Shown here in pieces: positions 2,011-59,366 of a stretch of DNA of 64,000 nt. Origin of the DNA: Candidatus Moraniibacteriota bacterium. GTDB lineage: Bacteria; Patescibacteriota; Minisyncoccia; Moranbacterales; UBA1568. The stretch's first letter is position 1, and every line of letters begins with the position of its first letter. The DNA lies in assembly GCA_028711705.1 (NCBI GenBank), contig JAQTRS010000004.1, positions 9,205 to 73,204 on the forward strand, in the 5' to 3' direction. The notes beneath the pieces were generated by a model. It was not told the origin of the DNA and did not search any database. It saw only the letters and a list, made by a program, of their open reading frames with translations. Made by a program: the position numbers and the translations under genes.

Positions 2011-3531
2011 TTATTCTTGAAACAGGTTTTTTCCGGTCATCGCGTTAGGCTGTGCAATGCGCATTAAATGGAGCATGGTCGGCGTGACATCGGCGAGCGA
2101 TCCATTGGCAAGTATTCCTGGGGCTGTGACGATGGCAGGGACGACATTGGAAGTGTGCGCGGTGTGAGTTTCTTGCGTCTCTTGATCGATATTCAGTTCC
2201 GCGTTACCGTGATCGGCAGTAATAAAAGCAACGCCATCTTTAGCAAGAGTTGCTTCAATGACGCGTTTGAGTTGCGTGTCAATTTCTTCAATGGCTATGA
2301 TAAGTGCTTCACGATTTCCAGTATGTCCGACCATATCGGCGTTGGCAAAGTTGATAAAAATAAAGTCGGTTCCTTTTTCAATGCATTCAAGCACTTTGTC
2401 GGCGATTTCTTTGGCGCGCATTTTTGGTGCCTGATCATGCGTTTGAATATCCTTGCGACTTTCAATGAGAATGTGCTCTTCGTTTCGATGTGGAAGTTCT
2501 TGACCGCCATTGAGGAAATAGGTGGCATGAGCATATTTTTCCGTCTCAGCGACATGGGCCTGCGAGAGTCCGGCAGCGGAAACTTCCTGGGCGAGGGTGG
2601 TGGTGATGACGCTCGGCGGGAAGGCCACGAGGCTCGGGATATTCTTGTCGTATTCGGTGAGCGTGACGAAGCAGAGGTTCTTATCATCCGCGTGGGCGAC
2701 GATCTTGCTTGAAATCATGCGCGCCCGATCGGAACGGAAATTGAAAAAGAAGATGCCATCATTGTCATTGATAGTGGAACTATTGCCCTCTTCATCAAGG
2801 AAGACGACAGGTTCGATATGCTCATCGACAAAGCCTTGTGCATAGAGCGCTTCGATGACTTCCGATGGCTTGCGGGTTTTATGCGCATTCACGCTCTCAC
2901 CCTGGAAGATGGCCTTCTCGACCTTTTCGAGGCGGTCCCAGTTATTGTCGCGGTCCATGGCATAGAAACGGCCGGCGGCAGTAGCGATGAAACCGATGCC
3001 GAGGTTGTCGATCACATCCTCTAGTTCCCGCAAGAAACCGGCTGCGCTGCGCGGACTGACATCTCGTCCGTCGGTGAAGGCATGGATGGCTATCTTTTTG
3101 ATGCCGGCTTCTTTGGCGGCTTCCAAGAAGGCATATAGGTGCTGACTGTGACTGTGGACGCCGCCGGGAGAGAGGAGCCCTTTGATATGGAGGACGGAGT
3201 CATATTTTTTGACATGGTCGAACAGTGTGACGAAGGCCGGATTGGTAGCGAATTCGTTGTTGCGGATGGATTTGGCGATGCGTACCAGGTCGGTGTCGAT
3301 GATTTTTCCGGCGCCGATAGTCATGTGGCCGACTTCGCTATTGCCCATCTGTCCTTCGGGCAGCCCGACGCTTTCCGAGCTGGCATCCAAAAAAGCATGC
3401 GGATAGGTTTTCAGAAGGTGGTCGAAGAACGGTGTCTTGGCCTGTGCGATAGCATTATCTTTGACGTCTTCGCGATGCCCCCAGCCGTCGAGGATGATAA
3501 GGATGGCGGGCGTATGGTCTTTATGTGTCAT
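2011..3531 (-). CDS. gpmI: 2,3-bisphosphoglycerate-independent phosphoglycerate mutase
   Basis: N-terminus ...PAILIILDGWGHRE..., with metal-binding/phosphoserine-region motifs typical of iPGM and a length of about 507 aa. Start chosen at MTHKDH (3531); the longer ORF reaches 3603. Confidence 0.85.
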   Translation of the reverse strand: MTHKDHTPAILIILDGWGHREDVKDNAIAQAKTPFFDHLLKTYPHAFLDASSESVGLPEGQMGNSEVGHMTIGAGKIIDTDLVRIAKSIRNNEFATNPAFVTLFDHVKKYDSVLHIKGLLSPGGVHSHSQHLYAFLEAAKEAGIKKIAIHAFTDGRDVSPRSAAGFLRELEDVIDNLGIGFIATAAGRFYAMDRDNNWDRLEKVEKAIFQGESVNAHKTRKPSEVIEALYAQGFVDEHIEPVVFLDEEGNSSTINDNDGIFFFNFRSDRARMISSKIVAHADDKNLCFVTLTEYDKNIPSLVAFPPSVITTTLAQEVSAAGLSQAHVAETEKYAHATYFLNGGQELPHRNEEHILIESRKDIQTHDQAPKMRAKEIADKVLECIEKGTDFIFINFANADMVGHTGNREALIIAIEEIDTQLKRVIEATLAKDGVAFITADHGNAELNIDQETQETHTAHTSNVVPAIVTAPGILANGSLADVTPTMLHLMRIAQPNAMTGKNLFQE

Positions 3532-5028: not shown

Positions 5029-6177
5029 ATGGCCCAAAAATACTGCATCAAAACTTTCGGTTGCGCGCAGAATGTGGCGGATTCCGAGCGGATCGCGTCG
5101 TTTTATGAGTCGCGCGGCTATGAGGAAACCAAGGACGATACGCAGGCGGATACCATCGTCATCAATACCTGCGTGATCCGCGGGCGGGCCGAGGAGAAGG
5201 TGTATGGCATGGTGCGTAATCTTCAGCCGTTGCGTGAGAAAAATCCCGACCTTTCCATCGTCATCACGGGGTGTCTGATCGGTGCGGCCTCGCGCGAGCC
5301 TTCAGGCAAGATGATGAAGGCACTCCGCAAGCGCGTGCCGCATGCGCAGCTTCTGCCGCTCGACGAAGTGGGTTTCGAATACGCCCCCAAGCGGACGCAG
5401 GGGAAGGCCGCCTTTATCCCGATTTCCAATGGGTGCAATAATTTCTGCGCCTACTGTATCGTGCCGTTTTCCCGGGGCAAGGAACGTTCCCGAACATTCG
5501 ATGAGATCGCGGGGGAGGTTTTCGAGGCGGTCGAATCCGGCTGCGAGGAAATCGTGCTCTTGGGCCAGAACGTGAATTCGTATGGGGCGGATTTTCTGCA
5601 GGAGAAAATCAAAGAAGGTGATGCTTACACATTGCCCAATGGGGAAAACGTGAAACCGGTGATGGTCAAGCATCTGAACCGCCATCGCATCCCGACTCTT
5701 TTCCCGCAGCTTCTGGAATATGTTGCGACCGTTCCCGGTGTGAAAAAAGTAACCTTCCTTTCTTCGAATCCGTGGGACTTTTCGGACGAGCTGATCGCGG
5801 TGATGGCGCGTCAAAAGAATATCGATCGCCGATTGCACCTGCCGGTGCAGGCGGGGAGCGATGCGGTGCTTAAGGCGATGAACCGCTGGTATACGCGCGA
5901 TGAATATGTGGCGCTTGTCGATCGTATCCGCAAAGCCATTCCGGAAATCGAAATCACCACCGATATCATCGTCGGTTTCCCGGGAGAGACGGATGAGCAA
6001 TTCGAGGATACGATGGATCTGGCCCGCAAAGTTGGGTTCGCGCAGGCGTATATCGCGTGGTATTCACCGCGTCCGGGAACATCCGCCGCGACCAAGATGC
6101 AAGATGACGTGCCTTTTTTGGAAAAGAAACGGCGTTTCAAACAGATCGATGATGTGGTGTGCGGAAGGCTTCCGTAA
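5029..6177 (+). CDS. miaB: radical-SAM methylthiotransferase (MiaB/RimO family), apparently lacking the C-terminal TRAM domain
   Basis: N-terminal MTTase domain (KTFGCAQN...). Radical-SAM CxxxCxxC (CNNFCAYC). Ends right after the radical-SAM domain, at a TAA embedded in the flank of the IR element. Confidence 0.8.
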   Translation: MAQKYCIKTFGCAQNVADSERIASFYESRGYEETKDDTQADTIVINTCVIRGRAEEKVYGMVRNLQPLREKNPDLSIVITGCLIGAASREPSGKMMKALRKRVPHAQLLPLDEVGFEYAPKRTQGKAAFIPISNGCNNFCAYCIVPFSRGKERSRTFDEIAGEVFEAVESGCEEIVLLGQNVNSYGADFLQEKIKEGDAYTLPNGENVKPVMVKHLNRHRIPTLFPQLLEYVATVPGVKKVTFLSSNPWDFSDELIAVMARQKNIDRRLHLPVQAGSDAVLKAMNRWYTRDEYVALVDRIRKAIPEIEITTDIIVGFPGETDEQFEDTMDLARKVGFAQAYIAWYSPRPGTSAATKMQDDVPFLEKKRRFKQIDDVVCGRLP

Positions 6178-6182
6178 TAAGG

Positions 6183-6358
6183 GAGGTAGTAGGTGAGGTG
6201 TATGTATTTTTGAGTCTGACAAGAGCGGCGCTTTCATTGAGAATCCTTTTCGAGATAGAGGGAAGATAACATCTATGCAGGTTTCGCTTTTACATACCTA
6301 TCATTCCATCGCGCCTAGATGTCAGACTCAAAAATACATACACCTCACCTATTACCTC
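6183..6358. repeat. MITE-like element: 39-bp terminal inverted repeats (1 mismatch) flanking about 98 bp, bordered by TAATAA direct repeats
   Basis: Left arm 6183-6221 GAGGTAGTAGGTGAGGTGTATGTATTTTTGAGTCTGACA. Right arm 6320-6358 is its reverse complement apart from one G/A difference. TAATAAG and TAATAAC flank the element. Confidence 0.55.
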
Positions 6359-6407
6359 TAATAACAAGAGCGTTTCTAGCAGAGTATAACACATAACACA
6401 TAAAAAT

Positions 6408-7193
6408 ATGTCACAACAGACAACGCTCATCTCCTGGAACGTCAATGGTATCCGCGCGGCGGAGCGCAAGGGGTTTTTGGATTGGTTGGATCAGGGAAAA
6501 TATACTATCGTCGGGCTTCAGGAAACGAAGATATCTCATCCTGATCAGCTTTCGCATGAGCTCAAGAATCCGGATGGGTATGAATCTTTTTTTCACTGTG
6601 CGACAGAGAAGAAGGGGTATAGCGGGGTGGTCGCCTATACGCAGCGTACGCCGCTTGCGGTCAAAACGACATTTCCCGGCGCGGTCCTTTCCGGTGAGGG
6701 GCGCGTGATAGAGCTGGAGTTTCCGGAGTTCACGTTTCTCACTATCTATTATCCCAATGGGGGGTCGGGCAAGGTGCGTTTGGCGTATAAGTTGGAATTC
6801 TATAAAGAATTTTTGGAATATGTGAAGGGTTTGGTGGCGCAAGGGAAGAAGGTTATTTTTTGCGGGGATGTGAACACAGCACACAAAGAAATCGATTTGG
6901 CCCGTCCGAAGGAGAACGAGAATGCTTCCGGATTCATGCCGATCGAGCGCGAGTGGTTGGATACGTTCGAGGCGGCAGGATTCGTGGATACATTCCGTAT
7001 GTTTCATCCGGACTTGGCAGACCAGTACACATGGTGGGATATGAAGACGCGGGCGCGCGATCGCAACATCGGTTGGCGCATCGACTATTTCTATGTGAGC
7101 GAGAATATGCGCGATGCTGTGAAAGATGCCTTTATCCTTCCGGATGTCATGGGTTCGGACCACTGTCCGGTGGGCGTGACGCTGGATATATAG
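6408..7193 (+). CDS. xth: exodeoxyribonuclease III (AP endonuclease, ExoIII/APE1 family)
   Basis: LISWNVNGIRA N-terminus, conserved catalytic D/H residues, C-terminal SDHCPV motif, length 261 aa. Confidence 0.9.
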   Translation: MSQQTTLISWNVNGIRAAERKGFLDWLDQGKYTIVGLQETKISHPDQLSHELKNPDGYESFFHCATEKKGYSGVVAYTQRTPLAVKTTFPGAVLSGEGRVIELEFPEFTFLTIYYPNGGSGKVRLAYKLEFYKEFLEYVKGLVAQGKKVIFCGDVNTAHKEIDLARPKENENASGFMPIEREWLDTFEAAGFVDTFRMFHPDLADQYTWWDMKTRARDRNIGWRIDYFYVSENMRDAVKDAFILPDVMGSDHCPVGVTLDI

Positions 7194-54400: not shown

Positions 54401-54595
54401 TGCGAAAAATTTTTGCGAATAAATGAAAGAGGAGCCTTTTTCATGTATCAAAAAGGCTCTGGAGAGGGAATAAAAACGACGAAGAATACATAAGAACCGG
54501 GAAGTATGAAGTATGCGACTCGGTTTTTGATTGGACGAAATGTTGCTTTTCCGCTAGGATGGAGTGTAATCGGAATATATATTAATACTACTTCT

Positions 54596-55648
54596 ATGGC
54601 TTTGAAAGTTGGAATCGTGGGGTTGCCGAATGTGGGGAAATCGACCCTGTTTAAGGTGTTGACACGGAAAGCTGTGGATATTAACAACTATCCGTTCTGT
54701 ACCATCGAGCCCAATGTGGGTATCGTCGAGGTGCCGGATGCCCGTCTGCAGAAGCTTTCGGATATGTCGCAGACGAAGAAGATCGTGCCGGCCGTGGTGG
54801 AATTCGTGGATATCGCCGGATTGGTGAAGGGGGCTAGCCAGGGCGAAGGATTGGGGAATAAGTTTTTGGCTAATATCCGCGAGGTGGATGCGATCGTACA
54901 GGTGGTGCGCTTGTTTGAGAATCCCAATATCATCCATGTGCACAATAAGGTGGATGGCGAGCATGATATCGAAATTATCAATACCGAGCTTATTTTGGCG
55001 GATATGGAGACGATCGCGAAGCGCAAAGTCCGCAGTATCAAGGAGGTGCGGGCCGGCAACAAGGAGGCGATCGCACAGTTTGCGGTGCTTGAGGCATTGG
55101 AGTCCGGATTGGAGAAGGGGATGCTGGCCAATACGGTTGAGGTGAATATGCAGGATGAGGCCGTCAAAAAACTCATGATCGAATTATCGCTTTTGACCGC
55201 GAAGCCGTTCTTGTATGTCTATAATATGTCGGACCTTGAGGCGACGCTCCCGACGCACCTTGAGGAGAAGCCGTGTGTGCGGCTGGATATCAAGATCGAG
55301 GAGGAGCTGATGGACATGAGCGAGGAGGACAAGCAGGAATTGGAACTGGTCTCTCATATCGATGATTTGATCCGCAAGGCCTATTCCTTGCTTGGACTCA
55401 TGACATTTTTTACGACGGGCGTGCAGGAGACGCGTGCCTGGACGATTCATCAGGGATCGACGGCGCCGCAGGCGGGGGCTGCCATTCACAGCGACTTCGA
55501 GGATAAGTTCATCCGGGCCGAGGTAATCCATTGGGAGGAATTGCTTGAGGCCGGTTCCTGGGCCAAGGCCCGCGAAATAGGCAAGCTCCGCCTTGAGGGC
55601 AAGGACTATATCGTCAAGGATGGCGATGTGATGATCTTCAAAGTGTAG
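54596..55648 (+). CDS. ychF: ribosome-binding ATPase YchF (Obg-family GTPase)
   Basis: G1 GLPNVGKST. Coiled-coil insert. C-terminal TGS domain (TFFTTGVQETRAWT...). Confidence 0.9.
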   Translation: MALKVGIVGLPNVGKSTLFKVLTRKAVDINNYPFCTIEPNVGIVEVPDARLQKLSDMSQTKKIVPAVVEFVDIAGLVKGASQGEGLGNKFLANIREVDAIVQVVRLFENPNIIHVHNKVDGEHDIEIINTELILADMETIAKRKVRSIKEVRAGNKEAIAQFAVLEALESGLEKGMLANTVEVNMQDEAVKKLMIELSLLTAKPFLYVYNMSDLEATLPTHLEEKPCVRLDIKIEEELMDMSEEDKQELELVSHIDDLIRKAYSLLGLMTFFTTGVQETRAWTIHQGSTAPQAGAAIHSDFEDKFIRAEVIHWEELLEAGSWAKAREIGKLRLEGKDYIVKDGDVMIFKV

Positions 55649-55854
55649 ACGACAGCAGGGTAAAAGGCACATCAAACATTTTTCACGACCTTCTCGAGTA
55701 CTCCAACGGTCGTAAAAAATGTTTGATGTGCCTTTTATGTGGGGAAAGGTGAGGGAGCTGCTGTGAGGAAAATTTTTTCTCCTGGTTGCATGACGGCTTG
55801 TTTATGGTATGCTTGAGGCAGAAAGGGTGCATTAATTCGTTATTCTCATATGGT

Positions 55855-57527: not shown

Positions 57528-59216
<1,689 letters not shown>

Positions 59217-59366
59217 ACATCTCATAGGCGGATTGTCTGACCGATGGACTGTGACAGTGTTACGGTACGAAAACAGGATGTTGCTTCGCGCATCCTGTTT
59301 TTTGTCACTCGTGACGACAGAAAAAATATGCTATACTGGAAGCAACAAATAAAATAAAAGGGAGCT

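Follow-up and report, generated by a model that had tools for sequence, protein, structure and literature searches.

Between the miaB and xth genes of a Candidatus Moranbacteria genome, a member of the CPR/Patescibacteria assembled from a metagenome, lies a long inverted repeat that begins just past the miaB stop codon, and the locus raises the question of what this element is and whether its arrival cost miaB its 3′ end. A preliminary description of the same DNA had proposed that an insertion/deletion event at a MITE-like element removed the part of the gene that encodes the TRAM domain. The analysis covered a 64,000-nt stretch of this DNA (the window), together with 89 related loci fetched for comparison, and the features of the region are collected in Table 1.

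Table 1. Features of the miaB-xth region, with positions numbered from the first nucleotide of the window
Feature	Position	Strand	Size and basis
miaB, gene for a MiaB/RimO-family radical-SAM methylthiotransferase without TRAM	5029-6177	+	382 aa; Pfam, TIGR00089
Left TAATAA, candidate target-site duplication	6175-6180	.	Sequence; contains the miaB stop codon TAA (6175-6177)
Left inverted-repeat arm	6183-6221	.	39 nt; inverted-repeat and arm-pattern searches
Element centre, non-palindromic	6222-6319	.	98 nt; fold; six-frame peptides without homologues
Right inverted-repeat arm	6320-6358	.	39 nt; inverted-repeat and arm-pattern searches, folds
Right TAATAA	6359-6364	.	Sequence; abuts the right arm
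Lineage-specific stretch of ~20 nt, CAAGAGCGTTTCTAGCAGAG	6365-6384	.	Alignment; absent from relatives, outside the inverted repeat
A-rich xth leader	6385-6407	+	Similar to the full spacer (10-12 nt) of relatives
xth-like gene, exonuclease III family	6408-7193	+	261 aa; Pfam Exo_endo_phos; synteny with L001, L003 and L007

There is indeed a small inverted-repeat element here, flanked by a repeated 6-mer and exceptional on statistical grounds. The inverted-repeat search confirmed the dimensions given in the preliminary description, namely 176 nt in total with 39-bp inverted ends and one mismatch: the arms, which are 98 nt apart, are complementary at 38 of 39 positions (97%), and at the remaining position T6352 stands opposite G6189, giving a G-U pair in RNA of the + strand and a C-A mismatch on the - strand. 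The stem is lengthened across an internal loop by GGCGC (6228-6232) and GCGCC (6311-6315). Within the 64-kb window this is the longest inverted repeat, and a search with the arm pattern at up to three mismatches found two sites only, both being the arms of the element itself, while 0 of 100 shuffled sequences gave a match. A census of 943 kb, consisting of the window and the 89 fetched loci and counting arms of at least 24 nt with at most 10% mismatches, returned six inverted repeats, of which the element is the longest and the sole one with a large centre. The predicted RNA fold has a free energy of -90.5 kcal/mol on the + strand and -88.1 kcal/mol on the - strand as compared to approximately -42 kcal/mol for shuffled sequences, corresponding to a z-score of about -12 on both strands. 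The GC content of the element (42%) equals that of the intergenic DNA of the window (42%); composition is therefore uninformative as to origin, and low GC was dropped as a mark of foreign DNA. The element has no evident coding capacity, its longest internal frames being 54 aa or less and its six-frame peptides being unmatched among 5.8 billion proteins at E values of up to 10.

Two sequence resemblances in or beside the arms were also recorded. In the stretch 6183-6204, the first 12 nt of the left arm (GAGGTAGTAGGT) match the core of the animal let-7 microRNA exactly, with TGTAT coming after a 4-nt insertion; the Rfam let-7 model is not among the matches of a permissive scan of the element (E up to 10), and the resemblance is taken as coincidence. 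In addition, ACAAGAGCG(GCGC)TTTC (6219-6236), inside the left arm, resembles ACAAGAGCGTTTC (6364-6378), outside the right arm, with 13 matching bases and a 4-nt gap, a likeness which is statistically marginal.

Comparison with relatives addressed how the element came to lie where it does. In the lineages represented by L001, L003 and L007, in which miaB is likewise followed by xth, only 10-12 nt separate the stop codon of miaB from the ATG of xth and the element is absent, and a multiple alignment opens a 218-nt gap in all three relative to the window. The proposal that the element arose by insertion is borne out by these empty junctions, and the window spacer carries a lineage-specific insertion of ~218 nt containing the element. 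Some 20-30 nt of this insertion fall outside the inverted repeat and are unaccounted for by the element. The MiaB proteins compared are 88% (L001), 84% (L003, L004 and L005) and 81% (L007 and L008) identical to that of the window, and as even the nearest available relatives reach no more than 88% MiaB identity, both the date and the precise limits of the insertion are uncertain. Other relatives differ at the same junction. In L009 (MiaB 75% identical) the miaB-xth spacer measures 521 nt (2500-3017), has no inverted repeat and contains a reading frame of 90 aa that is unrelated, runs on the opposite strand and gives no Pfam match; this junction has therefore been disturbed more than once. In L002 (MiaB 88% identical) xth has given way to a gene of at least 451 aa that is unrelated to it and for which no Pfam annotation is recorded. 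The junction after miaB thus seems prone to rearrangement. A 13-mer similar to the one described above opens this L002 gene (4283-4295), again at marginal significance, and a 13-nt match between the right flank of the element and the start of the same gene (AACAAGAGCGTTT) was set aside as chance, since blastn gave an E of ~1 and the gene has no relative in the window.

The flanks of the element were examined at the level of single bases. The left arm begins 6 nt past the last base of the miaB stop codon (6183 against 6177, with 5 nt between), as had been described. Both copies of TAATAA, which had been regarded as a possible target-site duplication, are present, and chance would place such a repeated 6-mer at the flanks, if up to 2 nt of slack are allowed, at 0.3-0.5% of positions; the fit is imperfect on the left, where GG (6181-6182) sits between TAATAA and the arm and produces a 2-nt offset. 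The right flank, TAATAACA, resembles the ancestral stop codon and spacer (TAGTAACA in L007, TAATATAACA in L001), which fits an insertion just past the stop codon with duplication of TAATAA. Between the element and xth there are 49 nt (6359-6407), and the last ~23 nt before the xth ATG (TATAACACATAACACATAAAAAT) are similar to the full spacer found in the relatives (TATAACAAAAAT, TAACACAAAAGT). Two further peculiarities of this region are the 7-mer ATAACAC, which stands twice in tandem in the xth leader (6386-6399) where relatives have a single TAACA(C) and which the element does not account for, and a short DNA palindrome, CGGAAG G CTTCCG (6163-6175), formed by the last miaB codons just 5′ of the stop; the latter is absent from relatives, whose C-terminal residues are RIK or RIQ as compared to RLP in the window.

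The product of miaB matches UPF0004 (PF00919, E = 5.6e-23) and Radical_SAM (PF04055, E = 1.9e-30), retains the three conserved N-terminal cysteines and carries the CxxxCxxC motif as CNNFCAYC. It scores above the subfamily cut-off of TIGR00089 (347.9 against 251 bits) and just under the MiaB equivalog cut-off (348.0 against 355.3 bits), and a database entry under the name Candidatus Moranbacteria MiaB/RimO, from a contig of 73,456 nt, has the same sequence (100% identity). To our knowledge, TRAM is an RNA-binding domain that is present in all characterised members of the MiaB/RimO/MtaB family. The absence of TRAM from the window protein, as noted in the preliminary description, was upheld: there is no Pfam TRAM match, and the TIGR00089 match stops at position 357 of 429, having begun at position 1. 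It was also correct that no TRAM remnant lies before xth, although the stretch in question is 49 nt rather than the 55 bp given; an HMM built from 104 TRAM tails found neither a remnant nor a standalone TRAM protein in any window frame of at least 30 aa, and no standalone TRAM protein was seen beside miaB in relatives.

The further claim, that the event at the element removed the TRAM-encoding end of miaB, did not survive comparison with orthologues and is almost certainly wrong. In its favour are the missing domain and the position of the element right after the stop codon; against it, the orthologues of L001, L003 and L007, which have no element, stop at the same residue position. Alignment to orthologues, which had been suggested as a check, revealed no truncation, the C-termini aligning without length difference (…DDVVCGRLP* in the window, …DDLVFGRIK* or …DDLVFGRIQ* in L001, L003 and L007). 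All of the 120 best homologues (66-100% identity; 366-423 aa) contain PF00919 and PF04055 alone, with no TRAM, and all fetched relatives of at least 57% identity are TRAM-less and end 1-33 residues past the alignment end, whereas most fetched relatives of approximately 40% identity run on for 70-80 residues, which constitute the TRAM domain. Among 140 representatives obtained by clustering at 50% and having a match that reaches the C-terminus of the query, the tail is 51-100 aa long in 104 and 15 aa or shorter in 25. The TRAM-less clade thus delimited comprises all Moranbacteria-like relatives of at least 57% identity and some at 40-47% (the window, L001-L024, L027, L036, L045, L046, L052, L070 and L072). 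The window miaB is intact and not truncated, its product being 81-88% identical to the nearest orthologues, as expected for a working gene, and the absence of TRAM is an older, lineage-wide trait unrelated to the element. TRAM-less MiaB represents a conserved architecture in Moranbacteria and some other lineages, and not a damaged gene; it is an ordinary pattern of domain loss and not an anomaly of this locus. A literature search on TRAM-less MiaB found nothing relevant.

Further copies of the element, and a parent from which it could derive, were sought at several levels. The BLASTN search for additional copies that had been recommended was carried out and yielded none, neither in the 64-kb window (arm patterns with up to three mismatches; blastn with word size 7) nor in 879 kb from the 89 related loci (blastn and nhmmer). 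Exact scans with 20-30-mers of the element (a 30-mer and a 22-mer in genome contigs, a 22-mer in metagenome contigs and three patterns in viral contigs) gave no genuine match in these collections, the one 22-mer match, in genome contigs, falling within a coding region of Aggregatimonas that has no inverted repeat and being ascribed to chance. Plasmid and phage collections searched with blastn in distant mode gave no match either. The six-frame composite peptide query against the 5.8 billion predicted proteins can expose MITE copies through spurious gene calls. The single-copy result covers 64 kb of the host genome plus the relatives, and the exact scans did not recover the window itself. No parent insertion sequence with matching ends was found in the window, the related loci or the collections searched, and the ends can therefore not be assigned to a transposase family. 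Two other inverted repeats of the window were considered as sister elements and rejected: in that at 59214/59437 the right arm falls within a coding region and the repeat encloses an ordinary terminator, while the hairpin at 55661-55737 is terminator-like, carries A and T tracts and shows no sequence relationship to the element. The latter has arms of 30-32 nt (97% complementary) and a loop of 13-17 nt, lies 13 nt past the stop codon of the frame at 54506-55648, is flanked by TAAAAGG and CCTTTTA, and looks like a bidirectional intrinsic terminator. The preliminary description had named a single-copy element combined with TRAM-less orthologues in relatives lacking the element as the outcome that would count against it, and this combination is what was found across the window, the relatives and the collections.

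We favour, with moderate confidence, an origin of the element from a small non-autonomous transposon with terminal inverted repeats, of which it would be an orphan, MITE-like relic. This reading is based on the 39-nt arms, the TAATAA flanks, the empty orthologous sites and the absence of coding capacity, and also on the lack of an Rfam family, the lack of a T-run and the unchanged reading frame and C-terminus of miaB; the genes on either side are both intact. Of the features by which MITEs are recognised, a length below about 600 bp, no coding capacity, terminal inverted repeats and absence at the orthologous site of relatives are seen, while several genome copies (in the window, the relatives and the collections searched) and a related autonomous insertion sequence with matching ends are not. 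Against the MITE-like reading stand the missing second copy and parent, the 2-nt offset on the left, the ~20-30 nt of extra sequence and the ordinary GC content, and since neither a second copy nor a parent element was found in anything searched, MITE status is unproven.

On the MITE-like reading, the element would have inserted into the very short spacer from miaB stop to xth start in the ancestry of this Moranbacteria genome, the 39-bp ends presumably being bound by a transposase supplied in trans; neither a transposase gene for such ends nor a sister copy is visible. The insertion would have duplicated TAATAA, stop codon included, in which case the pre-insertion site would have read CCGTAATAACA.... 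The ancestral spacing of 10-12 nt suggests that miaB and xth are co-transcribed, and in such a transcript the arms would be expected to pair into a stem of ~40 bp (-90 kcal/mol) that starts 6 nt past the miaB stop codon. Owing to the absence of a U-tract this stem should not work as an intrinsic terminator; the duplex could plausibly be cut by RNase III or stabilise the 3′ end of miaB mRNA, and xth may be translated from the retained ancestral A-rich leader with its close coupling to miaB lost. It is a good deal more speculative, and in our estimation improbable, that we have here the founding copy of a MITE family within the CPR, or else a stem-loop for RNA processing that is specific to this lineage of the CPR, and that the element has been co-opted such that RNase III cutting of the 40-bp duplex uncouples xth from miaB.

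Of the other explanations, two place the function of the hairpin in RNA and had been offered as alternatives in the preliminary description. An unusually long intrinsic terminator of miaB would account for a very stable stem directly 3′ of the miaB stop codon, but there is no T-run after the stem on either strand (it is followed by TAATAACAAG on + and CCTTATTACG on -), the terminator scan did not call the element, and in the relatives miaB and xth lie 10-12 nt apart without a terminator, implying co-transcription. Genuine terminators of the window, such as that at 59272-59305, consist of a short GC stem and a T-run. The element is thus not a canonical intrinsic terminator, and a terminator role is highly unlikely. 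Similarly, we regard as very unlikely that the element is an independent small RNA gene with its own promoter and a discrete structured product of ~176 nt, an alternative that gained no support despite the strong structure predicted for both strands and a weak sigma-70-like site, CTGACA-17-GAGAAT (6216-6244, +). Promoter-like sites in the region are no commoner than in shuffled sequences (4 found against 2.9 expected), no terminator is present, and no homologue was found in the relatives or the collections searched; a perfect 39-bp duplex is atypical for bacterial small RNAs. The Rfam scan of the element returned nothing at gathering scores, and the permissive scan matched only plant-miRNA hairpin models far under threshold, the best being MIR2646 (36 against 245 bits), a match that reflects a generic long hairpin.

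The remaining explanations concern the origin of the palindrome. It may have arisen by another route, such as template-switching, fold-back duplication in repair or replication, or capture of foreign DNA, and have been kept for a stem-loop role in the miaB-xth transcript, whether as an RNase III processing site, as a 3′ stabiliser of miaB mRNA or as an uncoupler of xth from miaB. The very stable fold (z = -12) is consistent with this, as is the stem that starts 6 nt past the stop codon, and the lone arm mismatch still pairs, as G-U, in RNA of the + (mRNA) strand but gives C against A on the - strand, although a single G-U pair is weak evidence as to strand, at about even odds. Likewise, no further copy occurs in anything searched, and the additional sequence beyond the inverted repeat hints at an event of greater complexity. 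However, a fold-back duplication would copy local sequence, and blastn matched neither arm elsewhere in the window; no such route predicts the flanking TAATAA, a repeat of the kind that transposition would leave; and the hairpin is not conserved, the three nearest lineages keeping a spacer of 10-12 nt, from which it follows that it is not needed for operon function. A palindrome of other origin, with any of these stem-loop roles, is therefore rather unlikely in our judgement. An error of assembly or sequencing, confined to one metagenome-assembled genome, has in its favour that a single assembly carries the element; the syntenic flanks, with miaB and then xth as in the relatives, argue against a chimeric join, the arms are not copies of local sequence, unlike those of fold-back artefacts, and the element lies in the middle of a 73-kb contig, all of which make an artefact exceedingly improbable.

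If the element is a true MITE with sister copies in the rest of the genome, it would document that DNA transposition is ongoing, or was so recently, in a CPR genome of streamlined type, and it would serve as a strain-level marker too; otherwise it represents a neutral one-off insertion. The more useful outcome is the negative one, in that the TRAM-less MiaB is not damaged, which raises the matter of substrate recognition without an RNA-binding domain. The window protein resembles MiaB, RimO and MtaB in its N-terminal UPF0004 domain with three conserved cysteines and in its radical-SAM core with CNNFCAYC, and differs from them in having no C-terminal TRAM, a difference common to the whole Moranbacteria clade sampled.

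Small palindromic insertions beside genes are well known in bacteria, and the present one is an element without known relatives whose family is not assignable; no description of MITEs in CPR bacteria was found in the literature searched. With intrinsic (Rho-independent) terminators it shares a stem-loop directly past a stop codon, whereas it differs from them in the lack of a U-tract, in a stem of ~40 bp, in a centre of 98 nt and in a downstream gene that is the ancestral operon partner. TIMEs, which are derived from Tn3, are comparable in their terminal repeats of ~38-39 bp and total length of a few hundred bp. Tn3-family ends are 38 bp long, start with GGGG, end with TAAG and are accompanied by 5-bp duplications; identity with a TIME was rejected by inspection, the element having ends of the form GAGGTAG...CTGACA (GAGGTAG...GTCTGACA) and a 6-bp flanking repeat. 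An integron attC site was dismissed in the same manner, as the ends do not fit the core sites. Bacterial MITEs suited to comparison are the Correia elements of Neisseria, RUP and BOX of Streptococcus, ERIC of enterobacteria and the Rickettsia palindromic elements. Those families are recognised by tens to hundreds of copies in a genome, in many cases together with a known partner transposase, whereas the present element is known from one copy, without a partner and without sequence similarity in the collections searched; its ends measure 39 bp as compared to 26 bp for Correia, and the flanking repeat that may be its duplication has 6 bp, is offset by 2 nt and is not TA. What it shares with them is a length in the range of ~100-300 bp without coding capacity, long inverted repeats at the ends with a short direct repeat flanking them, a place between genes and right beside them, and presence or absence at orthologous sites. 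Correia elements are RNase III substrates, and here, as with those MITEs, co-transcription with the neighbouring genes would give a long RNA hairpin.
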